Origin: an uncultured bacterium
Lineage (GTDB): Bacteria > Acidobacteriota > Thermoanaerobaculia > Multivoradales > JAHZIX01
NCBI GenBank assembly: GCA_965368975.1
Contig: CBDUPA010000006.1
Location: 222,511-286,510 of the forward strand
Length of the DNA: 64,000 bases
Reading direction: 5' to 3'
A program made the translations under genes and the position numbers. A model generated the notes under the pieces. The model was not told the DNA's origin. It made no database searches and worked only from the letters and a program-made list of their open reading frames with translations. This document shows positions 32,865 to 55,244 of this stretch, piece after piece. The first letter of the stretch is position 1. Each line of letters opens with the position of its first letter.

Positions 32865-33808
32865 GGAGCGTCTCCGGGGCCGTCGTTCAGCGTGATGCGG
32901 ATGGCGTCGCGGACGGCTTGCCAGGTCTCGGGGCTGGGGGAGCCGGAGCGGAGGTCGGCGAGGGTGGCTTCGTCCAAGTTGGCGCCCTGTTGGTTGGCGA
33001 GAGAAGCGGCGCGGACGAGGTAGTCGGGATGGTCGATCAGGTGCTCGGGGTCTTCGCGGTGGCTCAGGAGATGAGCCCAGGCGATCCACTGGCCGAAGTC
33101 GAAGGCGTCGCGCAGGGCAGGGTCTGAATCGATCTTGCTTTCGATTCTTTCAGCCCCGTCTGCGAGGGTTTCCTGGGTCTCGAGAGATTCCCAGAGGCCG
33201 CCTCGATCATCCCAGTCGTCGCTCGAGGTCAAGTTCCGAATGAGCTGGAATTCGATCCCCACATCTGGAGTCTCGGCCGCCAAAGTCCACCTCCATTCGA
33301 CGAGTCGAACCCCCAGCCGGAAGGCAGCTCTCCGGTTGACACTGGTCGGCACATACCCCGTCCGGCTGCGTGTCCGGTTCCAGTCGTGCGCGAACTCGAG
33401 ATCCCCAAGTTCTTCTACCCCGGGTGATGCTGGTGTCGAAGCTCCCGTCAGCCAGCGCAAGGTCGGCGTCTGCAGCAGCAAGACCGTCAAGCCCGCCGCC
33501 ACCAGAGTCCCGATCATCCAGAACCGCGACGAGCGAGGAAACCTCAGGACATTGTCCGGCCGACCTCCCCCCTCAGTGGATTCCATCGGCCCTGACGCGC
33601 CGTCCCAGGCTTCTTCTTCGGCCTGGAACGCTGCCGCATCCGCGAAGACCTCCGCGCAGTCCCCACAGCGCGCCAGGTGCGCCACCACGCGCGCCTTGAC
33701 GTCCCCTTCCAGCCGTCCTTCCAAGAAGGCGGCCAGCTGCTGCGCATCCGGATGCTCCGGTGGCGGCGTGGTCGGGGTGCCCGTAGGGGCTGAGGTGGTC
33801 GTCGTCAA
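32861..33808 (-). CDS. zf-HC2 (ZAS) anti-sigma factor with one TM
   Basis: HP...LAAFLEG...HLARCGDC followed by a TM; directly downstream of an ECF sigma. Confidence 0.85.
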   Translation of the reverse strand: MTTTTSAPTGTPTTPPPEHPDAQQLAAFLEGRLEGDVKARVVAHLARCGDCAEVFADAAAFQAEEEAWDGASGPMESTEGGGRPDNVLRFPRSSRFWMIGTLVAAGLTVLLLQTPTLRWLTGASTPASPGVEELGDLEFAHDWNRTRSRTGYVPTSVNRRAAFRLGVRLVEWRWTLAAETPDVGIEFQLIRNLTSSDDWDDRGGLWESLETQETLADGAERIESKIDSDPALRDAFDFGQWIAWAHLLSHREDPEHLIDHPDYLVRAASLANQQGANLDEATLADLRSGSPSPETWQAVRDAIRITLNDGPGDAP

Positions 33809-33843: not shown

Positions 33844-34713
33844 CTACCCTGTTTCCTGGTGGTGAGCTCGAGAGCCGTCTTCTGCTGCGCCAAGCACCAC
33901 ATGAATCTCGCCCCCGCTCCAGCCCAGTGTTTCCAGGACCGCCTCACCTTCTAGCCCGGCGGCCTCCAGATGTCGGCGCAGAACCCGCAAACACTTGTCC
34001 ATCCGGCTGTACATCGACCGCTGTTTGAGTTCCAGCGTGCGTGCGATCAGCGCCAGCGTCATTCCCTGGCGGAAGTGCAGCTCCAGCAGCAGCCGGTCGT
34101 CATCGTCCAGTGTCGTGAGCGCTTCCTCCAAGGCCACTTGCGTTCGTTCCTGCGTCGACGCCCGCTCCGCGTCCCGCAAGCCTTGTTGCGGATCACCTGC
34201 GGAGTCCGTTCCAGCCGGCAGACGCTCCAGCGTCTCCTCCCCCAAGTACTGCCGAGGCGGCCGTTCCGGCAGCTGCGCTGCGATGTCGCGCAGCTGCGCC
34301 GCCGTCTCGTCTACTTGGAAATTCGTCCGCAAGACCTCGATCGCCTCCTCCACCGTGTACCGGTCGCGCACCACCAAGCGTTCCAGTCTCACCGCCGCTT
34401 CCCCCAAACGCCGCGCCGCCACCGTCGGCCGCCACTTGCCCCAGCGGCTGTTGCGGAAGTCGCGCGACAGGTTCTGCACCACCGTGTTGAGGTAAGTCGT
34501 AAAAGCGCTCTCGCCCCGGAACTTCCTCAGAATTCCGTATTCGTCCTCTATTAGCTTGAGATGGACATAGGAGCGGAATTCCTCGCACAGGTCGCCAAGC
34601 AGGCCATGGCGTCGGCATGCAAAGGCCACGATGCGCTCGAGTCGATCCAGATGCTCGACGAACAGCGCTTCCGCGTCGGACTTCGTGCGGACGGAGGGAG
34701 AAGAGGGCGTCAC
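33844..34713 (-). CDS. ECF-type RNA polymerase sigma factor (module 1)
   Basis: Region 2 (FRGESAFTTYL..VV.N..RDF) and region 4 (L...DRLLL.L.F..G......IA..L), with an internal insertion. Confidence 0.9.
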   Translation of the reverse strand: MTPSSPSVRTKSDAEALFVEHLDRLERIVAFACRRHGLLGDLCEEFRSYVHLKLIEDEYGILRKFRGESAFTTYLNTVVQNLSRDFRNSRWGKWRPTVAARRLGEAAVRLERLVVRDRYTVEEAIEVLRTNFQVDETAAQLRDIAAQLPERPPRQYLGEETLERLPAGTDSAGDPQQGLRDAERASTQERTQVALEEALTTLDDDDRLLLELHFRQGMTLALIARTLELKQRSMYSRMDKCLRVLRRHLEAAGLEGEAVLETLGWSGGEIHVVLGAAEDGSRAHHQETG

Positions 34714-34771: not shown

Positions 34772-34859
34772 TCCGCGAATGGTATGCTGCGCGAAGCCGA
34801 AATTCTTTCAGTTGTGTTAACGCCCCTTGCTCAGGTCTTGGCGATGTCAGAAGGATTCC

Positions 34860-37800
34860 ATGAGTTATCGCGTCTTTGCAGGCTGTTTCACTGTTGCACT
34901 TTCGGTCGTGGGTTGGGCGCTGCTACGACCGTCCGGTCCGGAGGTGCCCGCACGGACAACGTTGCTGCGTGTGAGTCTCGACCAGGAGCACGCGCTCTGT
35001 CTGCCCAGTCTGGACACCCGGCGTTCGTTGCCGGAGTACGACTGTGAAGCTGGCCATCTGCAACGTAGGGCCCGGCCGACCCGCACCCGCGGTGGAGCCA
35101 CTTTCGCGGATCCACATGCCGACGGCGTTTCCGACCTGGTCTACTCTCCCAAGTACCCAGATCTGTTGGCCCACGCCGTGCGCAAGCTGGAGGATGCTAT
35201 CTACGTGGTGGAGGCCGACCCTGTGGCGACTGCACAGCGCTTCAACGATCTGGCGGCGGCCTACTTCCAGCGCGCCCTGCAGCGCGACGCCCCCCTCGAC
35301 CTGCTGCGCTCCCTGGACGCCCTTGAGCAAGCGCACGGCCTCGATCCGGATAGCGCCTATATCCACTTCAATCGCGCTACCGTGCTGCAGTTGCTCAACC
35401 TGCGTCACCGCGCCGTCGAAGCTTGGCAGCGCTACTTGCAGCTGGACACCGCCGCGCCGTGGGCAGACGAGGCGCGCGAGATGCTCGAGGTGGCGCAGCT
35501 CGACCCCTACGAAGCGTGGAGTTCACAAGCGGTCGAGGCGGCGATCGATGCTGGGGATGTCCAGAGTCTGGACATGCTGCTCGCCGGTTATGAAGGTCGA
35601 GCCCGCGAACTGGTGGACCTGTGGTTGCAAGACTGGGCTGGGAACCAGCTCGACGGCAAGGAAGCACTGGCGGTCGAGGCGCTACGGCGAGCAGAGGTGC
35701 TGGCGCAGTGGGTCGCCGCAGCGAATGGCGATACCTGGGCCGGAGATGTAGTGCGCATCGTCCAGGAGGCCGAAGGCGCGACCGCCTCCGCACTAGCCGA
35801 AGCGCATCGGCTGTACCAAGAGGCCCTCCCTCTGCTCACTCGGGACAGCGCTGCGGCTCTTGCCGGCCTGCGCGCAGCCCGCGACCGCTTCCAGGCCGCC
35901 GGTCATCCCGGCGCGCTTCGAGCCCAGCTGTACATCGATCTCGGTGTCCACTTCTTCGACGAGGAGAACAAGAACCTACCCGCCCTGCGTGCCGCCTACC
36001 AGCAGCTCCGCGCGCGCTGCGCCCCTGCCTACCTCCACTTCCTGGTCGAGCTGGACCTGCTCGAAGCTCTGGCGCACATGCAGGAGTTTCAGCTCGCCGC
36101 CGCGCGGGCGCTCCTGGTTCCCGCCCTGGAGGAGGCGGTCCGTTTGGGTGAGTTCGGTCTGGAACGTCAGGGGCGGGCCTACCTCGCTGAGCTGCAAGAC
36201 TGGCTCGGTGATCCCGAGGCTGCCTGGACCACTCGCTTCGCCAACCTCACCTTCCTCGACCGCTACCGGCCCGAAGGCGTACACGAGGTTCTCGCCGAAG
36301 CCGCCTTCAGCCTGGCGCGCGCCGAGATGCCCCATGCGGCACTGCAGTTTCTGGAAGAAGCCGAGGCGCGTCTCGACCTGACGCAGAGGGACGACCTGCA
36401 GATCCTCCCCTTGCTGCGGCGCGCGCAGCTGTCCGCCCAGCTGGCGCGCTTCGCGGCAGCCGAGGGGAGCTTGCACCGTGGTCGCGCCTACCTGGACGCC
36501 GTCGGCCCCGAGCTGCGACCGCGCTACGAGGCTGAGATCGGTATGCTCGAGGCGCTGCTGCACCGCGAGGAGGATCCCGAGGCGGCCCTCCGTGCTCTGG
36601 ACCGCGTGATCGAGGCCTTCGAGGGCACGAATCGCATCCTGCAGCTGGAAGCCCAGCTGGCCCGCGGCGACCTGCTCGCCCGCCAGGGCGCCCCGCTGGC
36701 CGCCGTCCAAGATCTGCAAGCCGCGCTCGACACCTACCGCGAGCTGCGGGCGAGCGACGAGCTCGATTCGTGGACCCGCCTGCGCTTCTTCGAGCAGAGC
36801 CGCGCCGGTTTCGAGAGCTTGATCCTCTGTTACCTGCAGCTCGAGGACCCCGCCGCCGCCCTCGAGGTCAGCGAGCAACTGCGCGCGCGGGTCCTCCTGG
36901 ACCAGACTCTCGGCAGTCTGCAGGGTCTCGACCCCGAGTCCGCCCGCGCCCAGCCCCTGAGTTCCAGCGACATCCTGGCGCGCCAGCCCGCTGGGGTCAC
37001 CGTGCTCTCCACCCTGGTCCTGCCGGACCGCCTAGTCGTCTTGCGTCTGCAGGAGGGGCGAGTCACCGTCAGCGATTTCACCGAGCCCTGGCTGCGCGGT
37101 CGTGATTTCCGAACCGGCCTGCGTCTGGCGGTGCAAGCGCAGCATCCGAGCTCTGGCAAGTCGCCGGCCGAGGTCACCGAAGCCGCGCGCTACGTTGCAC
37201 GCGCGCTAGGTGTCGACAGCACCACGCTGCCGCTGGACGGCTCCCTGGTAGTGATCCCCGACCACAGCCTGCATCAGCAACCCTTCGCCGCCCTGTATCT
37301 CTCGGACGGCTCGGAAACCGGCGACGAGCTGTTGGTCCAGCGCCATTCCGTCGGAGTCGCGCTCAGCCTCTCCCTGCTGTTGCAGAGCCCTTCCGGCACC
37401 CCCAGCCGCTGGCAGCGCTTGGTGGCGGAGTCCGAGGTTGGCGAATCCGTCTCGGCGTTGATCGTGGGTAATCCCGCCATGGCCGAGTCTCTCGAAGCCG
37501 CCGAAGAGGAAGCCCGCCAGATCGCCGCCCTGTACCCGAACTCCACCCTGCTGCTCGGTCCTCAAGCCACCCGCGACGCCGTACTCGGCGCCCTGGCCAC
37601 GAGCCCCCGCGTGGTGCACCTGGCGACCCACGGGTTCAGCAATATCCACCAGCCGCAGCAGGCCTACCTCCAGCTGGCTGAGCAAGGCGACGCCGAGGAC
37701 CGGCTCTCGGCTGCCGACCTCTATTCGCTGCAACTGCCCACCACCGATCTGGTGGTCCTGGCGGCCTGCGATACCGGCGTTGGCGATTTCGACAGCGTTG

Positions 37801-38045
37801 AAGGCCCGTTACACCTGGCGCGTCCCTTCGTGGCGTCCGGTGTGCCGTACGTGGTGGCAACGCTGTGGAAGGTGGACGACGAGGTGGCGCAGCGGGTGAT
37901 GGTGGAGTTTCATCGAGAACTGCGTCGCGGCATCGAGCCGCGGCAGGCGCTGCGGGCGGCGCAGCGCGTCGCCCTGGCCCAGTTAGTCGATGCTGACGAC
38001 AAAGCCGACGTGGCGGCGATCGTCCTGATCGAGTCCGGGAGCTAG
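34860..38045 (+). CDS. TPR-CHAT domain protein (caspase-like protease), module 1
   Basis: N-terminal hydrophobic anchor from ATG 34860, TPR-like helices, and CHAT motifs VIPD..L...PFAAL, HLATHG (His), LAACDTG (Cys), TLWKVDD. Confidence 0.92.
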   Translation: MSYRVFAGCFTVALSVVGWALLRPSGPEVPARTTLLRVSLDQEHALCLPSLDTRRSLPEYDCEAGHLQRRARPTRTRGGATFADPHADGVSDLVYSPKYPDLLAHAVRKLEDAIYVVEADPVATAQRFNDLAAAYFQRALQRDAPLDLLRSLDALEQAHGLDPDSAYIHFNRATVLQLLNLRHRAVEAWQRYLQLDTAAPWADEAREMLEVAQLDPYEAWSSQAVEAAIDAGDVQSLDMLLAGYEGRARELVDLWLQDWAGNQLDGKEALAVEALRRAEVLAQWVAAANGDTWAGDVVRIVQEAEGATASALAEAHRLYQEALPLLTRDSAAALAGLRAARDRFQAAGHPGALRAQLYIDLGVHFFDEENKNLPALRAAYQQLRARCAPAYLHFLVELDLLEALAHMQEFQLAAARALLVPALEEAVRLGEFGLERQGRAYLAELQDWLGDPEAAWTTRFANLTFLDRYRPEGVHEVLAEAAFSLARAEMPHAALQFLEEAEARLDLTQRDDLQILPLLRRAQLSAQLARFAAAEGSLHRGRAYLDAVGPELRPRYEAEIGMLEALLHREEDPEAALRALDRVIEAFEGTNRILQLEAQLARGDLLARQGAPLAAVQDLQAALDTYRELRASDELDSWTRLRFFEQSRAGFESLILCYLQLEDPAAALEVSEQLRARVLLDQTLGSLQGLDPESARAQPLSSSDILARQPAGVTVLSTLVLPDRLVVLRLQEGRVTVSDFTEPWLRGRDFRTGLRLAVQAQHPSSGKSPAEVTEAARYVARALGVDSTTLPLDGSLVVIPDHSLHQQPFAALYLSDGSETGDELLVQRHSVGVALSLSLLLQSPSGTPSRWQRLVAESEVGESVSALIVGNPAMAESLEAAEEEARQIAALYPNSTLLLGPQATRDAVLGALATSPRVVHLATHGFSNIHQPQQAYLQLAEQGDAEDRLSAADLYSLQLPTTDLVVLAACDTGVGDFDSVEGPLHLARPFVASGVPYVVATLWKVDDEVAQRVMVEFHRELRRGIEPRQALRAAQRVALAQLVDADDKADVAAIVLIESGS

Positions 38046-38084
38046 CCGGGGCGGTTCAATGGTTGGATTAGAAAGGAGTCTGCA

Positions 38085-39023
38085 ATGGTTGCTTTGGAAG
38101 TGATTCTTTCCGGCTTGTTGATCGTGTCCCCGGAAGTACCGGATACGAGTAACCCGCCGAAGTTTGGCAAGGTGCAAGTCTACATGGTCCAATCGTCAGC
38201 CCACCCTCACGATCCACAGCTACTGATTCCGCAGCAGTACATTCTTGACATGGCTTCACTGCCTACGTTCTGCGATTCAACGGAAGACCCGGTTGTCTGC
38301 AAAGTCTCGAACAAGATGGTTGAACTCCTGGGGCTGCAAGCCGGCAAGGTCGAGCTGGCAGGCAGCTCCCCTGTTTGCACGACGCCGTCGCCCTCGACCT
38401 GGGGAGATTTCTGCTACGTGCTGCCGATTAACCGTGTGCAGTACACGAGTGGTGCGGGGAACCCCAAGGTCGATGGACTGGACACGAGCAGAGTTGCGGC
38501 TCACACTAGCTCCAAGCTCACTCTAGAGTCCGGGGCTCTCTCGAGCGCTCACTGCCCTGTAGCCTACGAGGTCGAGTTCACTGCGGGAAGCCCACATCGG
38601 CAGACCCTGGCAGAGCATGCGCGGCTGCGGGTCCAGGTCGCCGCGGCTCCGAAGGTCGCGCTGAGTGATTCGAGCGGGACTCACGAAATCCAGTTGAAAG
38701 CGGACGCAGGAGCGATCTCTTTGGCGTACCACAACGCGGCCACTACCACGGGCTCTCATTTTGGGGCGTTCTTTCCATTGCTGAGACATGGTTTCGGGGC
38801 GGCCCACCCAAGGTTGAGCGGAGTTGCAAACCAGGTGGTGCCCCCGGCGACGCCCCCGCAACCGTCGCCTCTGTTGCCTGCTTGGTTTCAGTCCCGAGTC
38901 TGCGACTTCAGAATGCCTACTACGGCACCTGCTGCAACGGAACAAGCCCCCTTGGAGTTGTACTCCCTTACTGGATCCCTCTGCCCGCTCATCCGCGCCG
39001 ATCCAATTACCGATGGCGGTTAG
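38085..39023 (+). CDS. Hypothetical protein, paralog of 40874..41764
   Basis: AAAGGAG RBS; shares [L/F][S/T]GL, H.P.L, Q..A...R, F..F..L and C-terminal CP.IR motifs with the 296-aa ORF. Confidence 0.75.
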   Translation: MVALEVILSGLLIVSPEVPDTSNPPKFGKVQVYMVQSSAHPHDPQLLIPQQYILDMASLPTFCDSTEDPVVCKVSNKMVELLGLQAGKVELAGSSPVCTTPSPSTWGDFCYVLPINRVQYTSGAGNPKVDGLDTSRVAAHTSSKLTLESGALSSAHCPVAYEVEFTAGSPHRQTLAEHARLRVQVAAAPKVALSDSSGTHEIQLKADAGAISLAYHNAATTTGSHFGAFFPLLRHGFGAAHPRLSGVANQVVPPATPPQPSPLLPAWFQSRVCDFRMPTTAPAATEQAPLELYSLTGSLCPLIRADPITDGG

Positions 39024-39029
39024 AGGGCT

Positions 39030-39099
39030 GTAATCTCCCCTCGATGTCCGTCTCCAAGGTCGATTCAACCAAGGAACGACCTAAAAGGAGACGGACATC
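39030..39099 (+). promoter_or_regulatory. Putative ECF promoter overlapping a 13-bp inverted repeat that pairs with the RBS of 39100
   Basis: gtaat ctcccctcga tgtccgtctc; gatgtccgtctcc (39043-39055) is the exact reverse complement of ggagacggacatc (39087-39099). Confidence 0.6.
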
Positions 39100-40704
39100 A
39101 TGCGTTCCAAGACCCTCATCTCACTCTGTATCGCCTTCCTGGCTCTGTTGTTCCCTGCCGGTGCCGATGCTGCTTGCGGCGCCTGCGATGAGCCCGCGCC
39201 TGGGGAAATCTGCAGTATCTCGGTGGCAGGTATCTCTGGCTCGTCCAACGATGTGGTTGGCGGTCCCAAGTGCGTCAGAGTGGAGAATCTCAACCGCCTG
39301 GCCTTCGACATCCGGGTCGACAAGGAAACGGAACTCAAAGACCACCCTGACCTCTCTCAGGTGTTTCTCAATCCCGGAGCCCTGCTGAAGCAGCGGAAGG
39401 AAGTGGAAAAGGAGAAGGCCGAGCTGGATAAGAAGTCCACGGAGGCAAGGACGACCGGCGCGGAGACCGAGAGCAGGTTCCTGAATCTCCCTGCCCCGAG
39501 TTCCGGCATTCGAGGGGAGCCAGGCGAAGACCAGCCGCTGACATATCGCTTGGTAGAGCCGACCCAGATCGAGAGTTTCGTGGGGCAGTTCGAGGATCAG
39601 AATCGGGCTCTCGAGTACCAGGTTTGGGGCAGCCTCAATGATCTCTACGCTAGTTACTCGAAGCTCTCTCAAGAGGTCAGTACGAAGGCCGACGGAGTCA
39701 AGTCAGCCCTCGAGACGGTTGAGACTGCCCAGATCGAGATCGCTGAGCTTGTCAGGCAGAGTGACGGGCATCTTCAGCGCGGTGGGGCGGCAGAACTTCT
39801 GAAGGCGATGGACCCCGTGAAGACGAAAACCAGCTCGGCTATGGCCCACAGCTGGCCGGGGGATCTACAGAAGCTCCGGGAAGGCATCGAAGCTCTGCAA
39901 AGCACCGCGCGTGACCTCCGGCGGCCGATTCTTCGCTTTTGTGCATTGGGCCAGGAGGACGAGTGCTTTGATCGCTACGACAAGCTGGTTGAGGATCTTC
40001 TCCCATCACTGTTGACGACAGTCGACGGACTGGCAGAGGGAGGAGAAAAGCACAAGGTCTTCCAGGAAGGTCAGAAAGCGCTGACAATGTGGTTTGGGAT
40101 CATGGGCTCGTTGAACGAACAGAGCTTCCGAGCCGAACAGTGTGCCGACTGCGGCCCTCCGTTCTCCAAGCAGAAGACCCACACCATCAAGATGGTTCGC
40201 CTCGACCGCCTGAACAAGGATGCCAAACCCGAGACCTTCACGCTGGTGACCGTGGAATGTCCGCAGAGCTTCACCACCAGCTTCGGCTTCTCGATCGCCG
40301 GCCTCTCGGAGCGCAACTTCAAGTTCGTCGATGCCAAGGCGGATGATGGCTCGCTCGAGCAACAGATCGGCTTCGAACAGAAGTCCGATGAACAGGTCAA
40401 CGCCGTGCTGCTCCTGAATGCGCTCCTGGCATCGAACGACTGGGGCAGCTTCTACGCCAGCGTCGGTCCGACGTTGGAGCTGAACAACGCGGATTCCGGC
40501 GTCCATCTGGGCTTCGCCGCCGGTATCTCCTACGGCATCCGCGAGAACTGGCTCCTGACCTTGGGTGCCCAGATCGGCCGCGTGCGCGACCTTGCCGGAG
40601 GCTTCTCCCCGGGCGATGTGGTGCCGCAGGGGCTCAACGAGCCGCCCACCGAGGAAAGCTGGAAGACGAGCTGGGCCGTCATGTTCAGCTACAAGGTCAA
40701 CTAG
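39100..40704 (+). CDS. Secreted protein with a helical/coiled-coil middle and a beta-rich, outer-membrane-barrel-like C-terminus
   Basis: Signal peptide (ADA), several Cys pairs, alternating-pattern strands, and terminal WAVMFSYKVN. Confidence 0.75.
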   Translation: MRSKTLISLCIAFLALLFPAGADAACGACDEPAPGEICSISVAGISGSSNDVVGGPKCVRVENLNRLAFDIRVDKETELKDHPDLSQVFLNPGALLKQRKEVEKEKAELDKKSTEARTTGAETESRFLNLPAPSSGIRGEPGEDQPLTYRLVEPTQIESFVGQFEDQNRALEYQVWGSLNDLYASYSKLSQEVSTKADGVKSALETVETAQIEIAELVRQSDGHLQRGGAAELLKAMDPVKTKTSSAMAHSWPGDLQKLREGIEALQSTARDLRRPILRFCALGQEDECFDRYDKLVEDLLPSLLTTVDGLAEGGEKHKVFQEGQKALTMWFGIMGSLNEQSFRAEQCADCGPPFSKQKTHTIKMVRLDRLNKDAKPETFTLVTVECPQSFTTSFGFSIAGLSERNFKFVDAKADDGSLEQQIGFEQKSDEQVNAVLLLNALLASNDWGSFYASVGPTLELNNADSGVHLGFAAGISYGIRENWLLTLGAQIGRVRDLAGGFSPGDVVPQGLNEPPTEESWKTSWAVMFSYKVN

Positions 40705-40718
40705 TCACGCACTGCTGT

Positions 40719-40750
40719 CCGGCGCCCGGAACGGGGCGCCGGCTGCTTTT
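40719..40750 (+). terminator. Probable intrinsic terminator
   Basis: ccggcgccc / gggcgccgg stem followed by ctgctttt, just after the stop of 39100..40704. Confidence 0.5.
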
Positions 40751-40873
40751 CCCTGCCGCCCGCCGTGATCCATCGGCCGACCGGCTGACGCTTGGCCGTT
40801 TCCGTCACTTCAACTCTCCAATGGAGCAGCTCTCGCTGACATTGCTCCCCGCGCGGAGCAGAAAGGAATTGTC

Positions 40874-41764
40874 ATGCCTTTTACACTGGATGTGATTTTC
40901 ACTGGGCTTTGTGTCGCCGTCCACGACACGACCCATCAGAGACTCGATGTCCTGGTCATGGATGCCAGCAGCAACGCCCACCAGAACGAGGGGATGCGTC
41001 CTCATACGCCCTTCCTGGTGGCGGACATCGAGGATCGAGGGTTGGTCTCGAACGGCTTTACCAAAGTCGGGAAGCCCAAGCTCACGGCCACCGGTAGTCT
41101 GGTGCAGCGCTACACGCCCCCACGCAAGCGGTTCGTGTTCCACGGTGCCAGCAACGCGCTCGACCTGGAAGATACGCACTCGGCAGCTTTGGAGGCAGCC
41201 AATGCAAAGCTCCCAACTTCCGGTCAAGAATCGGACATCTACTGGCTCCTGCGGCTCGCCAAGCTCGGAGGGGGCTTCGCGCAGGTCAAGGCGGAGCACA
41301 TGAGCCCCAGCTCGAAGGTCCACTCGATTTACTCCTTCACCCACGGGGTCGCCGGCTGCTATTCGCTGGCCATGGACTCCAAGAGCAGCACGAGTCCGGT
41401 TGTCGCCTGGGATTTCGCCAAGGAAGCGATAGGTTCACCGGTCGTCCACACCCAGGCCATGGCAGACCGCTTGCGGGTGCACTTGGAGGTCTCCGGTGCA
41501 GAAGTCGACATCCGCTCCGAGGATTCGATGGAGGGGTTCAAGATCATTCCTCCCAAGTGGAAGACGACGACTACGATAGTCATCGGCAATGTCGACAACG
41601 ATCTCGCCGAGCGTGAGAACGAGAAAATACGCGACTTCCGCTGGTTCTACGAGCTGGTTGACATGCCGCCGGCTCTCTCGGATCGACCGATTCCCAAAGC
41701 TTCGGCGAGCCCCCCTTCCGGTTCCGGCGTCGTATGCCCGATTATCCGGATGGAAGCACCATGA
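40874..41764 (+). CDS. Hypothetical protein, paralog of 38085..39023
   Basis: AAAGGA RBS; IFTGLC, HTPFL, QAMADRLR, DFRWFYEL, CPIIR. Confidence 0.78.
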   Translation: MPFTLDVIFTGLCVAVHDTTHQRLDVLVMDASSNAHQNEGMRPHTPFLVADIEDRGLVSNGFTKVGKPKLTATGSLVQRYTPPRKRFVFHGASNALDLEDTHSAALEAANAKLPTSGQESDIYWLLRLAKLGGGFAQVKAEHMSPSSKVHSIYSFTHGVAGCYSLAMDSKSSTSPVVAWDFAKEAIGSPVVHTQAMADRLRVHLEVSGAEVDIRSEDSMEGFKIIPPKWKTTTTIVIGNVDNDLAERENEKIRDFRWFYELVDMPPALSDRPIPKASASPPSGSGVVCPIIRMEAP

Positions 41765-42651
41765 GCGGTACTACGAGACTTTCTGCGGTCAGCTCGCAGC
41801 GGGGTTCAAGAACCGTGTCGCGCTCCATCTTGCGCACGATCCGAGTCGTTCCCGAGCCGGATCCCAAGAATCCACGCTGCGGTTGTCTGGCGATCTCGCC
41901 GCTGTGCCGTCGCGAGTTTTCTTGTAAGGAGCTGCAACCCTATTGGGAGTCGATCGAAGCGCTTCATCCGAGTGTCTTGCACATCCAGGGGGAGGATCCC
42001 TGCACCGGTGCCGTGGTGGACCCGCAGGACTTCGACGTCGATCCGCCAGCGAATGGAAGGGTCTTCTACCTCCTGACGGCAGCGCACTGCGTATCCGGTG
42101 TCCGCGCGTGTGAGAGCTTCGATCCCAAGGCCTACGTCGGACGGAGTATCCAGACTGATGTTCGAGAGCAGGTGGGATCCTGTGAGGACCTGCGTTCTCA
42201 GATGCTCTTGCAGGGGAATGCCGTGATCAGGTACGTCGACTTCCAGCGGGACCTGCTCTTGTTGGAGGTACCGGCGAGCGGGTCTCGAGTTCCCACCGTA
42301 GTAACGGCCAAGATGGGAGGGCCTGAGCAGGCATTTCGGGGCTTCACGATTTCCTACCCAACCGACCCCGAGCCGTGCACCTTCTTGAGTGGTCTACTTC
42401 GCAGGGCCGCTTCAATGTTGTCCTTCTTTCGATCTGACCGTGACCCTGACCCGAGGGCACGGGTCACGGTCGTGGACTGCCATTGGGCCCAGAGAGCACT
42501 GTGCGGCCGGGCCGCGTGGAGAGGCACCGTGCAGGTCGGCTACCTGGGCGAGGGAAGTTCGGGTGCTCCGCTCTTCGACGGCGAAGGCAAGCTACGCGGC
42601 GTGTTGGTGGATATCGACTCGGACGACAGGCCGGTCTTCGCACCCTTGTAG
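41761..42651 (+). CDS. Trypsin-like serine protease
   Basis: LTAAHC (His), RDLLLL (Asp), GSSGAPLF (Ser); ATGA overlap with the previous gene. Confidence 0.82.
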   Translation: MSGTTRLSAVSSQRGSRTVSRSILRTIRVVPEPDPKNPRCGCLAISPLCRREFSCKELQPYWESIEALHPSVLHIQGEDPCTGAVVDPQDFDVDPPANGRVFYLLTAAHCVSGVRACESFDPKAYVGRSIQTDVREQVGSCEDLRSQMLLQGNAVIRYVDFQRDLLLLEVPASGSRVPTVVTAKMGGPEQAFRGFTISYPTDPEPCTFLSGLLRRAASMLSFFRSDRDPDPRARVTVVDCHWAQRALCGRAAWRGTVQVGYLGEGSSGAPLFDGEGKLRGVLVDIDSDDRPVFAPL

Positions 42652-43310
42652 TTCGGGGTGGTAAGCACAAGTCGTGAATGGCCGGAAACACGAAGGCGAC
42701 CGAGAGCGGTCCTGGGCATTCCGGGTGAGAGGTGAGCGGTAGAGAGGACAAGGCACTAATGAGTTACGTCGACTTCGTTACCATGACATAGCTCGACGCC
42801 CACGCCTCGAATCTCAGCTAGACGCGGAGAAGGCCTTCTTGGATCTGCCATATAGACTACTTGGACTGCTTCCGCAGGACTGGCGATCAGGCGACGCAGG
42901 AGGCTACTTCCGACCCTAAGCTCCCGCGCCAAACGCGAAGATCATCACGTTCGGTCTAGTAGAGCTAAGTATCCAGATCAGTGACTGTTGCTCGGTTCCC
43001 TTCGGGGTAACGGGGGCAGTCGCGAGGACGTGTTCACTGGCCAGTACTTCGCTCTTGGTCAGGTAGCTTCTGGATGCCACCACGTTCCGCGATATCGCTG
43101 GGCTACGAACTCTCGCTACGGTATCGGCCACCACAGCAAGGCCATCGGAGACTCTTCCGGACTTTCCCTTCATCCCAAGTCCCCCTCCCTCCGCGCAGCT
43201 TTTACCCCTCCCGCTGCTCTTACGGCCCCGACAATCCCCGCAGTGTTCCCCACAGAGGTAACCCGTCCCCGGCAACCAAGCCGAAACTGCGTTGCCCGAA
43301 GGAGAACACC

Positions 43311-43442
43311 ATGCTCAACCTCATCCCGATCCTCCCCTTCGACCCCCTCGGCCGCGGTGCCGCTCTCGACCCCAACGGCCGTGGTGCCGCACTCGATCCC
43401 AATGGCCGTGGTGCCGCGCTCGACCCCAACGGTTCACCGTGA
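43311..43442 (+). CDS. 43-aa repeat peptide MLNLIPILPFDPLG(RGAALDPNG)3SP
   Basis: AAGGAG RBS 6 nt upstream of the ATG; three 27-nt repeats differing only at synonymous third positions; a terminator follows directly. Confidence 0.85.
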   Translation: MLNLIPILPFDPLGRGAALDPNGRGAALDPNGRGAALDPNGSP

Positions 43443-43448
43443 CACTTG

Positions 43449-43475
43449 ACGCGCCGGTTCGCCGGCGCGTTTTTT
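43449..43475 (+). terminator. Intrinsic terminator after the peptide gene
   Basis: acgcgccgg-ttcg-ccggcgcgt followed by ttttt. Confidence 0.88.
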
Positions 43476-43552
43476 GCTTTTGCCACGCACCCCGGGATCC
43501 AGCTACACTCGAAGGCTAGTAAACTCTTGTGCCTTTGGAGGAGACTTTACCG

Positions 43553-44830
43553 ATGCACATCAGTAGGGAGATCCTGGAAGCCTTCGAGCGCGGGGCGATC
43601 CCGGCTCGCGAGCTGTTGGACTTGATGCGTGAGCACCTGCTCGAGCTGTGCCCGGAGTGTCGGGACGAGGCGCGGGTGTTTGCGGGGCAGAAGCACTTCC
43701 ACCGCTTCCTGACCATCCTACCGGCGTTGCAGGCGCGCTGGCGCCTGGCGCGGCAGGCGGAGGAGCGGGAGCAGGTGCTGGCCCAGAAGTGGATGGACGA
43801 GCTGCGGCGGTTGCCGGCCGCGGAGCAGCTGGGGCGGGTGGAGCGGGCGCGGACGCGGTTTCGCGGGGTGGCGGTGGCGCGGTTGATGCTGGACCAGGCC
43901 CGGGCCTCGACGCCGATGGACCCGGACGGCGAGCAGCGCTGGGCACAGATGGCGGAGCGGGCGTGCGTGCAGCGGCTCGACGAGGCGCCGGAGATCCTGG
44001 CGCTGGCGGCGGCGCACCAGGCGAATGCGTACCGGCTGCGCAATCGCGACGACCAGGCGCTGGCGTTCTTCGACATCGCGCACCACTTGCTCGGGTTCGT
44101 CACCGACCTGCCGACCATCGCGGAAATCCTCAGCTTGCAAGGGTCCTTGTTCATGGACCAGCGCCGGTTCGACCAGGCCGACGCGTGCTTCCGACGGGTG
44201 CTGCGGCTGCACCAGATCGTGCCGGACGAAGTGCAGCAGGGGCGGACGCTGGTGCAGCTGGGCAACAACCACTACTTCGCGGGGCAGTTCACCGCGGCGA
44301 TGGAGGCGACGCAGGCGGCGCTCCGGCACTTGAGCGAGGCGGACGGGTATCCGTACATCTGTGCGCGGCACAACCAGGTTCTGTACCTGGATGCGGCGGG
44401 GCATCACGTCGAGGCGATGGAACACTATCGCCAGCTGTTGCCCTTGCTGGCGCGCCAGAAAGAAGCACGGCTGCAGCTGGCGGGCAGCTGGCTGGCGGGC
44501 AAGATCGCTGGCGGACTGGGTCGCGACGTCGAGGCGGAGCAGTGGTTGCTGCAGACACGCCAGGAGTTCTTGGCGCGCGGTGACGGTTATGACGCGGCCC
44601 TGGTGGCCTTGGACCTGATGGCACTGTGGGAGCGGCAGCAGCGGGTGGGCGAGCTACAGCAACTGGTGGCCGAGACCCTGCCAGTGCTGCGCGGCTACAA
44701 GCTCGACCACGAGGCCAGCCAGGCGATCGAGGTGCTGCAGCGGGTCCTGGGGCGCGGGCGGGTGTCCATGGCGCTGCTGCGTGGACTGGCGCTGCAGCTG
44801 CATCACGCGCGTCGTCGGCTGCGACGTTGA
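43553..44830 (+). CDS. Soluble TPR protein with an N-terminal zinc-finger-like (H-x4-C-x2-C) segment
   Basis: GGAGGAG RBS before ATG 43553; HLLELCPEC; multiple TPR-like helix pairs; no TM or catalytic motif seen. Confidence 0.82.
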   Translation: MHISREILEAFERGAIPARELLDLMREHLLELCPECRDEARVFAGQKHFHRFLTILPALQARWRLARQAEEREQVLAQKWMDELRRLPAAEQLGRVERARTRFRGVAVARLMLDQARASTPMDPDGEQRWAQMAERACVQRLDEAPEILALAAAHQANAYRLRNRDDQALAFFDIAHHLLGFVTDLPTIAEILSLQGSLFMDQRRFDQADACFRRVLRLHQIVPDEVQQGRTLVQLGNNHYFAGQFTAAMEATQAALRHLSEADGYPYICARHNQVLYLDAAGHHVEAMEHYRQLLPLLARQKEARLQLAGSWLAGKIAGGLGRDVEAEQWLLQTRQEFLARGDGYDAALVALDLMALWERQQRVGELQQLVAETLPVLRGYKLDHEASQAIEVLQRVLGRGRVSMALLRGLALQLHHARRRLRR

Positions 44831-44877
44831 GCTGTCGGTGGTCGTGGCCATCGGAAATCGTGCGATCCAGATTCGAG

Positions 44878-44905
44878 GTGAGAGAACGGGGCGAGTGGCG
44901 GCAGT
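44878..44905 (+). promoter_or_regulatory. GTGAGAG-N17-CAGT putative ECF promoter
   Basis: gtgagag aacggggcgagtggcgg cagt, about 90 nt upstream of 44995. Confidence 0.55.
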
Positions 44906-44994
44906 CGGGAATAGACGGGCGAGCAATTTTGCTAGAATGCCATAGCTTGACGCCCAGTCGCCCGTCGCCATCGATCTGAACAGGGAGAAGACCC

Positions 44995-47937
44995 GTGCGC
45001 TATCACTCCGCCCTCGCCTCTATTCTGACCGCAGTCCTGCTGAGCTGTTTCTACATGACCTCCGCTCAAGCCCAGGCGATCCTCCGCGTACCGCAAGAAA
45101 TCGCGGGGCTGCAGCAGGCGATCAACAGCATTCCGAACGGCGGCATCATCGAGATCAGTGCTGGTACCTACCCGGCACCGGCGAACGGTTTCCGCATCCG
45201 CAACCTGAACAAGACCTTCACCATCCGGGCGGTTGGTGGCCAGGTGACGCTGGATGGCGAGGGCAGCAAGCCGATCCTGCGCATCGAGAATGGCCAGCGG
45301 GTCATCCTGCAGGGACTGTCCTTCCGCGACGGCGTCGGGACGTCCGAGACCGACGCGGGCGCGGTGACCATCGACGGCGCCGAGGTCAGCATCCTCGATT
45401 GCCAGTTCGACAACAACCGCACGCAGACGCCGACCACCGGCGGCGGTGCGGTGCGCATCTTCGAGGACTCGCTGGTGTCGATCGTCGACTCGCAATTCCG
45501 CGACAACTCGTCGAACAACCGGGGTGGGGCCGTGGCGGTCGGCTTCTCGGTCGCCTACATCCTGCGTTCTACCTTCGAGCGCAACCGCGTCAACCTGCCG
45601 GGGCATGCCAGCGGCTCGCCGGGTGGCGCGATCTACGTGCAGGACGGCAAGCTGCGGGTGTACGACTCGCACTTCGAGGACAACCAGGCCGGCTGGACCG
45701 GTGGCGCCATCTACGCGTTTGGCACCTGGAACAATCCGGTGACCGTGCCGGCCGCCGAGGTGTTGATCGTCAACTCTGAGTTCCGCGGCAACTTCGCGCT
45801 ATCGGATCCGGGCAGTCCGCCGCCGGGTGTGACGGTGGGTGGTGCGCTGCACGCCGAGGACCAGACGGCGATGCGCGTCTACCAAAGCCGTTTCTTCGAG
45901 AACTTTGCCGAGCGTGGTGGCGGTGCGGATGCGTACCGCGCGCTGCTCGAGATCCAGGATTCCGTGTTCCGCGGCAACTTCGCGACCAACCCCACCAGCG
46001 GTTCTGGCGGCACCCTGCACGCGGTGTCGTCGGACTTCAACGATCCCTCCACCAACTTCGGCGCCATCAACCGACCGCCGGCACAGCTGATTGTCCGCAA
46101 CACGCTGCTGCAGGGGCGCTTCGGAGCGACCGGCGTGGCCGCGGTCAACGGTGGCTGCCTGAGCGCTGCTGGCGACCAGACTCGCATGACGGGGGCGGGC
46201 GTGCCGGCGAATGGTAGCGCGGCCGACAATCGCGCCGTCGTGCGTCTGGACGGCGTCGTGTTCCACAACTGCGACGTCGAGCGACCGGCCGCCAGTGCCG
46301 GCGGATTTGGTGGCGGCGTGAACGTCAACCTGGTCAATCTGGCGATCGAGGACTCGCTGTTCCTGGAATGCGACGCGATGGGCCAAGGTAGTGCCGGCGG
46401 TGGCCTGGCGATGTTCAACGACAGCATCGTCAACCTGCAGCGCACGACCTTTGCCGACAACTCTTCCGAGCGCTTCGGCGGTGCCGTGCACGTGTCCGAC
46501 TCACGCTTCGACGTCACTGCCAGCGAGTTCTTCGGTAACGAGATCAGCCCCGGCGAGTCCGAGATCGTCAACCAGAGTCGGGGTGCTGCCATCTTCTCGA
46601 TTCCGACGCAGCGCGACGTCACCGGGTCGATCAGCAACAGCTTGTTCAGCAACAACATCGGCCTGCCCGTCTTCGAGGTCGACAACGACAATGGCCCGGT
46701 CAACGCGCTGCGTTACAACAACAACCGGTTCTTCAACAACACCTTCGGCAGCAAGGTGTTCACCAACATCCTGGTCGATCGCGCCGGCTCGACCGTGGCG
46801 CAGCTCAACGGCATGGTGGTCAACCGCGCCGGTGCCGGCAACAGCGACAAGAGCACCAGCAACAACACCGCGCTGGGCAGTGCGCCGGCGGAGGGCACGG
46901 TCCACGCCGTACCGTCGACGGTGCACACCGGCGACAGCGCCAAAGCGACGAATCCGTCCTTCCTGGCGAGTGCCTGGGCTCGCGGGACCGCGCGTCTCGA
47001 CGGTGTCACGCTCAACGGCTTCAGCGACCTGCGTTCGACCACCGCCACCGGCAACCACGCGCTGCAGATCGGGTCGAGCACCGTCGACAACCTGAACTTG
47101 TCCGCCAGCAGCTGCACCACCGGTGCTCTCCTGTGCCTCAACGGCGAGCGTTTCCGCGGCGACATCGCGTGGCAGGACTTCAGCCGGCGCAGCGGCCTGG
47201 GCAACGCCGAGCAACTGACCAACGACACCGGCTACTTCTGGTTCTTCCGCGACACCAACGTCGAGGTGGTGACCAAGGCGCTCAACGGCACCAACAACAA
47301 CGGTCACTACTGGTTGTTCGCTGGCGCGCTATCCAACGTCGAGTACAAGCTGACCGTGCTCGACGAAGTCACCGGTCGCGTGCAGGACTACTTCAACCCA
47401 CTGCGCAACTTCGCCAGCCTGGGCGACACCACCGCCTTTCCCGACGACCTCGAGCGGCCCGTGGCGCTGAGCCCGGCAGATGCTGATATCGAGGCCGAAC
47501 CGCGCTGGCGCACCGGCGTCCTCGCCATTCCGGCCGGCGGCCTGGACGGTGGCGAGAGTACGATTTCCGAAGGTACGCAGACGGCCGACAAGGCTGCGTG
47601 CAGCACCACGGACACGACCCTGTGCCTGAACCAGAACCGCTTCGAGATCACCGTCGAGTGGCGTGACTTCGGCAACCGCACCGGCGTTGGCAATGCCGTA
47701 CAGTTGACCAGCGACACCGGCTTCTTCTGGTTTTTCAAGGACACCAACGTCGAAGTCGTGATCAAGGTGCTCAACGGCACGAGCATCAACCAGCACTACT
47801 GGGTGTTCTACGGTGCGCTGTCGAACGTCGAATACACCATCCGCGTCACCGACACCGAGACCGGCTTCGTCAAGACGTACTTCAACCCGCTGCGCAACTT
47901 CGCCAGCGTCGGAGACACCACGGCGATTCCCGAGTGA
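44995..47937 (+). CDS. Secreted parallel beta-helix (F..N / GGA repeat) protein with two C-terminal ~100-aa domains
   Basis: Signal peptide; many F..N....GGA[I/V] repeats; duplicated DTG[Y/F]FWFF.DTNVEVV.K.LNG..N.HYW.F.GALSNVEY domain. Confidence 0.88.
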   Translation: MRYHSALASILTAVLLSCFYMTSAQAQAILRVPQEIAGLQQAINSIPNGGIIEISAGTYPAPANGFRIRNLNKTFTIRAVGGQVTLDGEGSKPILRIENGQRVILQGLSFRDGVGTSETDAGAVTIDGAEVSILDCQFDNNRTQTPTTGGGAVRIFEDSLVSIVDSQFRDNSSNNRGGAVAVGFSVAYILRSTFERNRVNLPGHASGSPGGAIYVQDGKLRVYDSHFEDNQAGWTGGAIYAFGTWNNPVTVPAAEVLIVNSEFRGNFALSDPGSPPPGVTVGGALHAEDQTAMRVYQSRFFENFAERGGGADAYRALLEIQDSVFRGNFATNPTSGSGGTLHAVSSDFNDPSTNFGAINRPPAQLIVRNTLLQGRFGATGVAAVNGGCLSAAGDQTRMTGAGVPANGSAADNRAVVRLDGVVFHNCDVERPAASAGGFGGGVNVNLVNLAIEDSLFLECDAMGQGSAGGGLAMFNDSIVNLQRTTFADNSSERFGGAVHVSDSRFDVTASEFFGNEISPGESEIVNQSRGAAIFSIPTQRDVTGSISNSLFSNNIGLPVFEVDNDNGPVNALRYNNNRFFNNTFGSKVFTNILVDRAGSTVAQLNGMVVNRAGAGNSDKSTSNNTALGSAPAEGTVHAVPSTVHTGDSAKATNPSFLASAWARGTARLDGVTLNGFSDLRSTTATGNHALQIGSSTVDNLNLSASSCTTGALLCLNGERFRGDIAWQDFSRRSGLGNAEQLTNDTGYFWFFRDTNVEVVTKALNGTNNNGHYWLFAGALSNVEYKLTVLDEVTGRVQDYFNPLRNFASLGDTTAFPDDLERPVALSPADADIEAEPRWRTGVLAIPAGGLDGGESTISEGTQTADKAACSTTDTTLCLNQNRFEITVEWRDFGNRTGVGNAVQLTSDTGFFWFFKDTNVEVVIKVLNGTSINQHYWVFYGALSNVEYTIRVTDTETGFVKTYFNPLRNFASVGDTTAIPE

Positions 47938-52499: not shown

Positions 52500-53186
52500 C
52501 TACTTCTTCACGGATTTGAAGCGCATCGCCATCTCGGTTCCGGCCCACAGCAACTCGAGGTTCTTGCCGTCGGTCGTGAACCGTTCGGCGGCCTCGAGAC
52601 CCTGGAAGAAGCGCCGCTCCTGCTCCATCACGCCCGCAGGCTCAGGGCAGTACATCTCAGTGTGGACGATGGGACCGATGTCGATGCGATCCTTCGCAGT
52701 GAGGTAGCTGCCGCCGTAGGCATTGCAGCCGCCCGAGCCCGAGGCGCTGGTCTCGGAGAAGTTCAGCGTCACGCGGGTACCCGGAATCACCGGATCCTGG
52801 CGGCGCCCGATGCGGAACTCGACGAGCTCCCAGGATGTATCGGCGAGAGGCAGCAGGCCAGCGTCCGCGGCTTCGGCCAGGCCGGTAGGCGGCATGAGGC
52901 TGAGCACACGCACCTGCACTTGGTGTGGGCCGGCGAGGTCGACGACGGTGATGCTGCGCGGGATGGATTGGACCTGGAAGCTCTGCTGGATGCTGAACGG
53001 GCTGATGACCTGCAATGGTCCCGGCACCCAGTAGAGCGTGTGGACGGGCGGAATCGGCTTGGGGTTCTGCTCGAGCCAGATCGCGACCTGGTTGCTCGGG
53101 GTTTCGCCCTGGGCATGGATGATGATGGTGTTGTCGATGGCGACGGCGCTGTAGCGCTTGGCGAGGGCGAGTTGCTTGATGCTCAT
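52500..53186 (-). CDS. META (HslJ-like) domain protein with an extra ~95-aa N-terminal beta domain, copy 1
   Basis: LADTSWEL, SGSGGCNAYGGSY, T.MYC...MEQE..F...L; no signal peptide or lipobox. Confidence 0.88.
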   Translation of the reverse strand: MSIKQLALAKRYSAVAIDNTIIIHAQGETPSNQVAIWLEQNPKPIPPVHTLYWVPGPLQVISPFSIQQSFQVQSIPRSITVVDLAGPHQVQVRVLSLMPPTGLAEAADAGLLPLADTSWELVEFRIGRRQDPVIPGTRVTLNFSETSASGSGGCNAYGGSYLTAKDRIDIGPIVHTEMYCPEPAGVMEQERRFFQGLEAAERFTTDGKNLELLWAGTEMAMRFKSVKK

Positions 53187-54545: not shown

Positions 54546-55244
54546 CTACTTCTCGAGAGCCCTGAACCGCAGCGCCCGCTCGCCGTCCTGCCAGAACAGA
54601 CGCAGTCCCTTGCCGTCAGCAGTGAAAGTCTCCGCGGCTTCAAGCCCCTGGAAGTAGAGCTGTTCCTGCTCCATGCGTCCCGGCGGTTCGGGGCAGAACA
54701 TGCGGGTACTGCCCATCGGGCCGATGTCGATGCTGTCGCCGGAGGCGAAGTAGCTGCCGAAGTAGGTGTTGCAACCACCCGAGCCGGAGACGCCGCCGCG
54801 ATCGTCGAAGTCGAGGGTGATGCGCGTGCCGTCGATGACGGGGATCTGTTGGCGCCCGACGACGAACTCCGTCAGCTGCCAGGAGGTGCCGGCCAGGGGT
54901 AGGGATGCGGCTTCGGCGGTCAGTGCCTGGCTGTCAGCGGTTGTCGAAGGCAGACCGATCGGACGTACGTGGACTTGGTGCGAACCGGCCAGGTCGACCA
55001 CGGTGATGCTGCGCGGGAGCGCGCTGACCTGGAAGCTCTGCCGGACCTTGAACGGACTGACGACGGGCAGCCAGCCCGGCACCCAGTAGAGATAGTGGAT
55101 CGCTGGCTCGACGTCTTCGGGTCCTTGTTCCAGCCAGATTGCGGTCTGGCTGGAGGGGGTCTCGCCTTCGGCGAAGAGGATGATGGTGTTGCCGATGGCG
55201 ACGGCGCTGTAGCGCTGGGCGAGAGCGAGTTGCTTGAGGCTCAT
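54546..55244 (-). CDS. META (HslJ-like) domain protein with an extra N-terminal domain, copy 2
   Basis: Close paralog of 52500..53186 (MS[I/L]KQLALA.RYSAVAI; SGSGGCN.Y.GSY; MEQE..F.QGLEAAE). Confidence 0.88.
   Translation of the reverse strand: MSLKQLALAQRYSAVAIGNTIILFAEGETPSSQTAIWLEQGPEDVEPAIHYLYWVPGWLPVVSPFKVRQSFQVSALPRSITVVDLAGSHQVHVRPIGLPSTTADSQALTAEAASLPLAGTSWQLTEFVVGRQQIPVIDGTRITLDFDDRGGVSGSGGCNTYFGSYFASGDSIDIGPMGSTRMFCPEPPGRMEQEQLYFQGLEAAETFTADGKGLRLFWQDGERALRFRALEK

Follow-up and report, generated by a model that had tools for sequence, protein, structure and literature searches.

What does a 43-residue open reading frame (ORF) carrying three identical copies of one nonapeptide do, 110 nt ahead of a gene for a tetratricopeptide repeat (TPR) protein? 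The two genes occupy positions 43,311 to 44,830 of a 64,000-nucleotide stretch (contig CBDUPA010000006.1 of assembly GCA_965368975.1; hereafter the window) from an uncultured bacterium of the Acidobacteriota, class Thermoanaerobaculia. The original prediction, made from the letters of this stretch, regarded them as a candidate peptide-signalling or RiPP-like system (RiPP, ribosomally synthesized and post-translationally modified peptide). The answer to which we incline, at somewhat better than even chances, is a peptide-receptor switch resembling those of the RRNPP family, with sequestration of a sigma factor as its predicted output. The module is family-wide in Acidobacteriota, occurring in Thermoanaerobaculia and Holophagales. 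The features of the small gene are as follows.

43300..43304, + strand: Shine-Dalgarno-like AGGAG, 6 nt ahead of the peptide-gene ATG
43311..43442, + strand: peptide gene, 43 aa (protein P0016), ATG at 43311, TGA at 43440-43442
43353..43433, + strand: three exact 27-nt units, each encoding RGAALDPNG (Tandem Repeats Finder)
43448..43481, + strand: intrinsic-terminator-like hairpin and U-run, 3' of the peptide gene (computed fold)

The full product of the peptide gene, translated from the window DNA, is MLNLIPILPFDPLGRGAALDPNGRGAALDPNGRGAALDPNGSP, with the layout MLNLIPILPFDPLG(RGAALDPNG)x3SP, in which a degenerate FDPLG stands 5' of the three exact RGAALDPNG units. It matches no Pfam or NCBIfam family. 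Tandem Repeats Finder resolves a 27-nt period with 3.5 copies over 43339-43432. The units vary at 5 of their 27 columns, and all five are synonymous third codon positions, an outcome expected with a probability of about (1/3)^5 if the positions were random (our own arithmetic). Related peptides described below follow the same pattern: in the (RSAMIDPNG)x4 repeats of a paralog on contig C23 of the same genome, all four variable sites are synonymous third positions, and at two loci of other genomes six of seven (L073) and four of five (L080) variable sites are synonymous, the exceptions being exchanges between N and D. Because the copies differ at synonymous third positions, the repeats are coding and under purifying selection at the level of the peptide. 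The hairpin behind the stop codon (43448-43471) has a stem of 10 base pairs, of which 8 are G-C, with TTTTGCTTTT behind it; its fold energy is -22.6 kcal/mol (z -2.7), and it is still formed when the whole of 43290-43490 is folded. An Rfam scan of 42500-45100 returns one sub-threshold small RNA match only (E 0.26). The description given in the original prediction, of a 43-aa ORF with a ribosome-binding site and its own terminator, three identical 9-aa cores after a degenerate DPLG, and copies differing at silent sites only, thus stands in full, down to the list of silent changes.

The downstream gene encodes the receptor-like partner, with the following features.

43480..43509, + strand: sigma-70-like promoter match TTGCCA-18-TACACT ahead of the TPR gene (consensus match only)
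43553..44830, + strand: gene for a soluble receptor-like protein of 425 aa, anti-sigma domain plus TPR (ORF, Pfam)
43553..43792, + strand: ZAS-type (zinc-binding anti-sigma) domain, residues 1-80, with candidate zinc ligands H2, H28, C33 and C36
43940..44827, + strand: TPR sensor region, residues ~130-425, with R161 invariant and N158 and W313 nearly invariant

The start codon of this gene, an ATG at 43553, lies 110 nt 3' of the peptide gene, and the single promoter match in front of it compares with 0.3 expected in shuffled sequences. TPR_1, TPR_12 and TPR_2 score above the Pfam cut-offs. The protein is soluble and presumably cytoplasmic, since its mean hydropathy does not exceed 1.18 in any 19-residue window; no signal peptide is present either. 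Conservation was read from an alignment of 57 homologs built from the loci found in other genomes, in which C33 and C36 never vary and at least 90% of the sequences share H2 and H28. When a profile of the N-terminal 80 residues is compared with the PDB, the best match is ChrR (2q1z_B and 2z2s_B, E 8e-7, over residues 3-79), followed by DdvA (E 1e-3), RslA (3hug_B, E 0.014) and RsiW (E 0.014). The H/H/C/C columns of the family align on H/H/C/C of ChrR with a one-residue gap, and these ChrR residues we take to be its zinc ligands. The same profile also aligns, at an hhalign probability of 95.5%, with an anti-sigma of the zf-HC2 type encoded elsewhere in the window (33500-33808, - strand), itself a match to PF13490 above the cut-off. 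On these profile matches, residues 1 to ~80 are assigned as a ZAS-type zinc anti-sigma domain of variant spacing. The protein had initially been described as all-TPR; its solubility and its distance of 110 nt from the peptide gene hold, but the first ~80 residues belong to the anti-sigma domain.

The remainder of the protein is a helical repeat of a familiar kind. TPR_12 is detected in all 57 members of the alignment, and the full-length profile finds in the PDB the peptide-binding TPR proteins LGN/Pins (LGN, E 1e-17) and kinesin light chain. The RRNPP member Rap105 (8rte) is matched at E 9e-8, far below generic TPR proteins.

The pairing of the two genes is repeated many times in the source genome. 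In this genome (G000, 7.1 Mb; its contigs carry C-labels, and the window copy is C6), tblastn with the TPR protein gives 16 matches, and a hidden Markov model (HMM) of the family gives 15 members above 300 bits, the next match scoring 126. A six-frame scan yields 131,866 stop-to-stop segments of 20-160 aa, among which the motif [ILMVFTYA]DP[NDIT]G occurs in 64. Ten of these 64 segments lie no more than 700 nt upstream of a family gene on the same strand, in front of 9 of the 15 members, where ~0.05 would be expected by chance (our own arithmetic). A tenth gene, C23:4166-5584, is paired with a convergent small ORF, so that 10 of the 15 paralogs have an adjacent DPxG ORF. By eye, a Shine-Dalgarno-like GGAG or AGGAG precedes 9 to 10 of the 11 DPxG small ORFs of the genome. 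The peptides of the three TPR paralogs closest to the window copy (38-40% identity) share RGxxΦDP[ND]G.

Two of the small genes in this genome deserve separate description. The one at C23:5617-5886 (- strand) encodes a canonical signal peptide and then (RSAMIDPNG)x4; convergent with C23:4166-5584, it begins 33 nt past the end of that gene. The window peptide has its closest analogue here, yet the adjoining TPR gene is a distant paralog. An orphan DPNG/DPDG small ORF lies at C1:682133-682288 (+ strand; ...SAMIDPNGLSSAIDPDGR), with no family TPR gene within ~4 kb; it adjoins two small ORFs that by eye resemble a VapBC-type pair.

The same arrangement is found elsewhere. When one genome from each of 185,579 species was scanned for the pattern, 49 loci (L-labels) emerged, and the records of all 49 are titled Acidobacteria/Acidobacteriota, Thermoanaerobaculia or Holophagales. 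Among 41 related genomes, G000 included, 19 contain a family match at E<=1e-30; the top match from a genome other than G000 has 35% identity, and the window copy is without a close ortholog in this set. From 86 HMM-positive ORFs, removal of duplicates (identical first 200 residues) and of those with less than 700 nt of upstream sequence left 71 homologs for two tests, a strict one for an ORF of 25-140 aa with a hydrophobic N-terminus and DP[ND]G, and a relaxed one for the motif D[PD]xG. In the strict test a partner is present upstream on the same strand in 32 of 71 cases, on the antisense of the same stretch in 0 of 71, and downstream in 9 of 71. The relaxed test gives 42 upstream, 2 upstream antisense, 11 downstream and 3 downstream antisense (n=71). 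Eight downstream matches (L017-L020, L029, L037, L041 and L042) and two antisense ones (L055 and L063) are proteins of the same kind in another orientation, that of L061 belongs, as upstream peptide, to the TPR gene that follows, and the relaxed downstream matches of L048 and L055 look spurious. The original prediction hinged on whether DPxG small ORFs recur beside TPR homologs, and this expectation is strongly borne out (10 of 15 paralogs in the source genome, 32 to 42 of 71 homologs elsewhere).

A typical partner is a protein of 77-135 aa in which a Sec-type signal peptide is followed by an amphipathic region rich in Trp and Leu and then by between one and five ΦDP[ND]G units, for example QDMGPFVDP[D/N]GRH five times in L073, GGLMDPNG four times in L087 and xYIDPNG four times in L038. 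Two or more units are present in 13 of the 32 strict peptides. The last unit forms the very C-terminus in 14 of the 32 and ends no more than three residues from it in 18. Over 53 occurrences of the unit, the residue that follows DP[ND]G is replaced by the stop in 14 and is Arg in 12, and the residue that precedes it is I, M or V in 48. The hexamer GAGGAG is found in 17 of 43 regions upstream of the peptide genes. Set beside these relatives, the 43-aa gene of the window appears as a minimal form, which keeps a short hydrophobic start and the units only and has lost the rest.

The TPR family is also abundant in metagenome protein space, where 6,626 cluster representatives match at E<=1e-30; the 150 that score best among the 6,626 are all full-length, at no less than 424 bits. 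Its members are named only 'hypothetical' or 'TPR repeat protein' in the sources. For the L038 pro-peptide, the nearest clusters are 'hypothetical proteins' of Acidobacteriota (scores 0.86-0.87), which serves as a lead only. The peptide and TPR pair of the window is one copy of a large unannotated family with up to 15 copies per genome.

The neighbours of the pair point to its output. All-against-all clustering of neighbouring ORFs from 16 regions of G000 and the 49 related loci reveals one distinct clade of ~175-aa extracytoplasmic function (ECF) sigma factors as a recurrent neighbour, with Sigma70_r2 and r4_2 above the Pfam cut-offs. Eight of the 20 clade sigma ORFs in the loci end at -19 to +156 nt relative to a family TPR start as called here (L022 twice, L031, L045, L058, L072, L077 and L088). 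Four more cases are probable (L024, L026, L047 and L052), the TPR start there having probably been called too far upstream. In L022, L031, L072 and L077 the genes follow one another as peptide, sigma, TPR, and they do so too in G000 at C2:252700-254988. In G000, the likely partners of the window TPR protein are the clade sigma factors encoded at C2:253032-253619, C13:5714-6313 and C13:6685-7281, a proposal made from clade membership. The region C13:5714-7281 (- strand) holds two tandem clade sigma genes without an adjacent anti-sigma or TPR gene; beside the pair stands an LptF/G-like permease gene, and it is this permease gene that is syntenic with the sigma-TPR arrays of L022, L024, L045, L047 and L052.

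The output domain itself differs between members of the family. In L055 (two genes), L063 and the database protein P0014, the same TPR is fused to HTH_3 in place of the anti-sigma domain, and the HTH_3 match exceeds the Pfam cut-off in L055:5247 and P0014. These relatives, too, have DPxG peptides next to them. Judged from these domain predictions, the TPR family exchanges its output domain modularly between an anti-sigma domain and an XRE-type helix-turn-helix (HTH). At nine further places (L021, L027, L033, L034, L036, L038, L044, L049 and L060), an XRE-like HTH protein of about 150 aa (~130-210 aa over the loci), below the Pfam cut-offs, is encoded on the opposite strand beside the TPR gene, in most cases convergent and downstream, but in L038 on the upstream side. 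In that sub-family the TPR receptor may thus have a DNA-binding partner encoded separately. Over the 65 regions, the recurring clusters comprise only the sigma factors, the XRE-like HTH proteins and housekeeping proteins; no modification enzyme, peptidase or exporter is among them.

From these elements a mechanism can be proposed. The small gene would encode a pro-peptide, the active part of which would be the C-terminal xxΦDP[N/D]G unit, present in the window as three RGAALDPNG copies. The pro-peptide, including presumably the short window form, would be exported, and either cleaved behind the Arg next to each unit or used without cleavage where the unit ends at its own C-terminus. The resulting short peptide would be re-imported, for example by an Opp/Dpp-type transporter, of which G000 has five binding-protein genes (PF00496), and would bind in the TPR groove. 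Binding may then alter the hold of the N-terminal anti-sigma domain on an ECF sigma factor, by release or by capture, and so turn a regulon on or off, in a direction that the proposal leaves free. Release or capture of sigma is proposed as the output because the domain under TPR control is an anti-sigma domain. As for the original idea that cleavage at Arg is performed by the nearby trypsin-like protease, the site fits (the Arg after 12 of 53 units), but the trypsin-like gene does not recur at other loci.

The proposed switch has parts in common with several known systems. It shares with Rap-Phr and the other RRNPP(A) systems a small pro-peptide gene adjoining the gene of a cytoplasmic TPR receptor, an active unit that is C-terminal and sometimes tandem, many paralogous pairs per genome and, in some relatives, an XRE-HTH plus TPR architecture. 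Tandemly duplicated pheromone pro-peptides are documented in phage Rap-Phr systems in the part of the text available for PMC11343458. Rap-Phr is the closest operating analogue, as there too the TPR controls an N-terminal helical protein-binding output domain. The systems differ in the host, here Gram-negative-type Acidobacteriota, in the mostly upstream position of the peptide gene, in the motif ΦDP[ND]G, and in a similarity to Rap that is no better than that to generic TPR proteins. Of the adjacent secreted pro-peptide that marks RRNPP(A) systems, the adjacency and the C-terminal motif are present here, and the canonical signal is found in relatives, not in the window form. The RRNPP(A) effector is an HTH (Rgg, NprR, PlcR, PrgX, AimR) or a three-helix bundle (Rap), whereas the window protein carries an anti-sigma domain instead.

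Among the ZAS anti-sigmas (ChrR, RsrA, RslA, RsiW and DdvA), likeness lies in the N-terminal profile and in the ECF sigma gene directly upstream in related loci. Unlike them, the family has H-x4-C-x2-C spacing and a cytoplasmic TPR as sensor, where theirs is a cupin or a membrane or periplasmic domain; co-encoding with an ECF sigma is seen in the related loci and for the C2 paralog, not for the window copy. In the DegS-RseA-sigmaE system, a periplasmic PDZ protease senses C-terminal peptides of outer-membrane proteins, and the anti-sigma is destroyed by proteolysis. A short C-terminal peptide motif is thus likewise the signal that frees an ECF sigma from its anti-sigma; here, in contrast, a cytoplasmic TPR is fused to the anti-sigma and the peptide comes from a dedicated neighbouring gene. 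The ECF classification, in the part of its text that was available (PMC7826278), describes soluble anti-sigmas in 10 groups, TPR extensions in ECF42 and a TPR-bearing FecR-like protein for ECF267. According to the same part of that source, a cytoplasmic TPR domain regulates the ECF sigma in ECF42 as well, but it is fused to the sigma itself, with no anti-sigma and no peptide gene. That text does not describe the present family, and the sigma clade might be in its supplementary group tables (PMC7826278). As read here, the module works like an RRNPP system, yet it lacks the effector domain that defines one, and the variant spacing, together with the lack of a sigma gene beside the window copy, makes it a classical ZAS anti-sigma in part only.

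Several observations weigh against this reading of the locus. The zinc motif is H-x4-C-x2-C (H28, C33 and C36), one residue longer than the classical HxxxCxxC, and Pfam zf-HC2 is detected in 6 of the 57 family members and not in the window protein. The resemblance to the zinc motif of the window anti-sigmas, as originally claimed, accordingly persists at the level of the domain but not of the spacing. The leader LNLIPILPF of the window peptide is short and without a basic n-region, and therefore is not a canonical Sec signal; of the hydrophobic leader first described, shortness and hydrophobicity remain. About half of the DPxG ORFs of G000 (C27, C21 and C12b) have little or no hydrophobic leader, and such short, leader-poor forms may act intracellularly or be decaying. 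Five of the 15 paralogs in G000 have no DPxG ORF beside them, and between 29 (relaxed) and 39 (strict) of the 71 homologs elsewhere are without an upstream partner. The most alike peptides, RGAALDPNG of C6 and RSAMIDPNG of C23, adjoin distant TPR proteins (26% identity, partial), so there is no simple co-divergence of peptide and receptor. A k-mer and two-block search of the 43 peptide-gene upstream regions returned no shared -35/-10 pair, only the Shine-Dalgarno hexamer. PF00496 is common, being present in 11 of 14 control genomes as well. Finally, no sigma gene adjoins the window TPR copy. With respect to the peptide-TPR switch outside Firmicutes that was first suggested, possibly acting through an ECF sigma, the switch is still the best reading, on the pairing, the ZAS domain and the sigma adjacency in relatives; the sigma link has no counterpart next to the window copy itself.

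The explanation that competes most seriously, although we consider it unlikely, is that the small proteins are secreted products with a role in the envelope, adhesion or antimicrobial activity, co-regulated with the sigma and anti-sigma without being ligands, while the TPR senses something else. ECF sigma operons often hold genes that they control, as is generally known, and the full-length forms of 77-135 aa with their conserved Trp-rich helix are more than a carrier of a short peptide needs. However, the forms have only one element in common, the short ΦDP[ND]G unit, which is C-terminal or tandem and under selection, and the window form has nothing left but that unit. The pairing is, moreover, kept where no sigma gene is present and where the output domain is an HTH, and in the window the peptide gene and the TPR gene have a terminator between them. 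Less probable still is a peptide that never leaves the cell, its C-terminal DPNG units binding the receptor inside as a cis-encoded anti-anti-sigma or as a report of secretion load, with no signalling between cells. Such a peptide would suit a cytoplasmic receptor, and the window peptide and several paralogs have no canonical signal peptide. The partners elsewhere almost always have a clear Sec-type signal, which makes an intracellular ligand hard to reconcile with the ancestral state.

Two further readings have very little in their favour. That the small ORF is a multi-core RiPP precursor, with the TPR protein as its maturation or immunity machinery, is highly improbable: its tandem identical cores resemble multi-core RiPP precursors, as the original prediction pointed out, and a trypsin-like peptidase gene lies upstream (41734-42651), but no modification enzyme, peptidase or exporter recurs over the 65 regions, and this peptidase gene, 660 nt off, is not conserved at the other loci. 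The RiPP-like alternative of the original prediction is dropped, as no modification enzyme is conserved near the loci, and its link to the trypsin-like protease is rejected with it, no tailoring enzyme recurring and the trypsin-like gene not being conserved elsewhere. An attenuator, in which the small ORF would be a leader peptide controlling the TPR gene, is the least credible of all. A small ORF with repeated codons is indeed followed 5 nt on by a terminator and then by the TPR gene; the fold of 43290-43490 nevertheless contains no competing antiterminator, the hairpin persisting in it (z of the whole stretch -1.0), and no Rfam family matches. The homologs are signal-peptide proteins of 77-135 aa, at times downstream of the TPR gene or convergent with it. 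This reading was rejected for want of an antiterminator structure and because of the long secreted homologs in variable orientation.

Other genes of the window complete the description of the locus. The region 34827-42651 (+ strand) is a block of five genes on the same strand, the first of which encodes a 1072-aa CHAT-domain protein (PF12770, E 5e-54) with a weak likeness to the TPR-CHAT protein Csx29. The next three proteins have no Pfam family, one of them with a signal peptide, and the last is the trypsin-like peptidase mentioned above (Trypsin_2, 34.5 bits). The GC content at third codon positions is 0.67-0.76 in the last four genes of the block and ~0.85 in their neighbours. The sigma genes nearest to the pair are the two ECF sigma genes at 33844-34713 and 62354-62962 in the window, and beside each lies a gene for its own anti-sigma of the zf-HC2 type. 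The former (- strand) encodes an unusually long ECF-type sigma of 289 aa, matched by NCBIfam sigma70-ECF over residues 15-249 and by Pfam in region 4 only; its partner is a zf-HC2 anti-sigma of 315 aa (32861-33808), and the CHAT gene lies divergent from it. Directly 3' of the TPR gene, 44995-47937 (+ strand) encodes a secreted protein of 980 aa that contains repeats of the Chlamydia PMP type and whose C-terminal module is duplicated; a regulatory link between the TPR gene and this protein is possible. Two paralogous genes of ~230 aa, at 52500-53186 and 54546-55244 (both - strand), start with MS[IL]KQLALA[KQ]RYSAVAI..., and in the ~1.4 kb between them no ORF passed the codon-composition filter.

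The survey with RRNPP_detector covered complete Firmicutes genomes only, and in the part of that text that was available, Gram-negative bacteria are described as using small molecules and encoded peptide pheromones that act through cytoplasmic TPR receptors as a hallmark of Bacillota (PMC10075063). A second RRNPP survey, PMC9765709, likewise presents such systems as belonging to Firmicutes/Bacillota; it contains no mention of Acidobacteria, Proteobacteria, Gram-negative or anti-sigma, and the literature search (supplements excluded) found no paper combining 'RRNPP' and 'Acidobacteri' and none describing a peptide-TPR-anti-sigma module. A more far-reaching picture can be offered tentatively, at rather less than even chances: Thermoanaerobaculia and Holophagales may possess a large network of peptide pheromones with many paralogs, which would be the first case outside Bacillota of RRNPP-type quorum sensing by import and binding. 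In such a network, secreted xxΦDPNG peptides would switch TPR receptors with interchangeable outputs, a zinc anti-sigma domain or an XRE HTH, the three to five residues before DPNG would set the pherotype, and the window gene would be a stripped-down triple-core cassette.

The finding places the gene logic of RRNPP systems in an abundant, poorly cultured phylum of soil and sediment. If the proposed function is true, a simple rule would identify signal-receptor pairs in metagenomes, namely a C-terminal ΦDP[ND]G beside an H..HxxxxCxxC-TPR gene. Peptide quorum sensing would then extend to diderm bacteria, and a dedicated peptide ligand would constitute a new type of input for ECF sigma/anti-sigma signalling.

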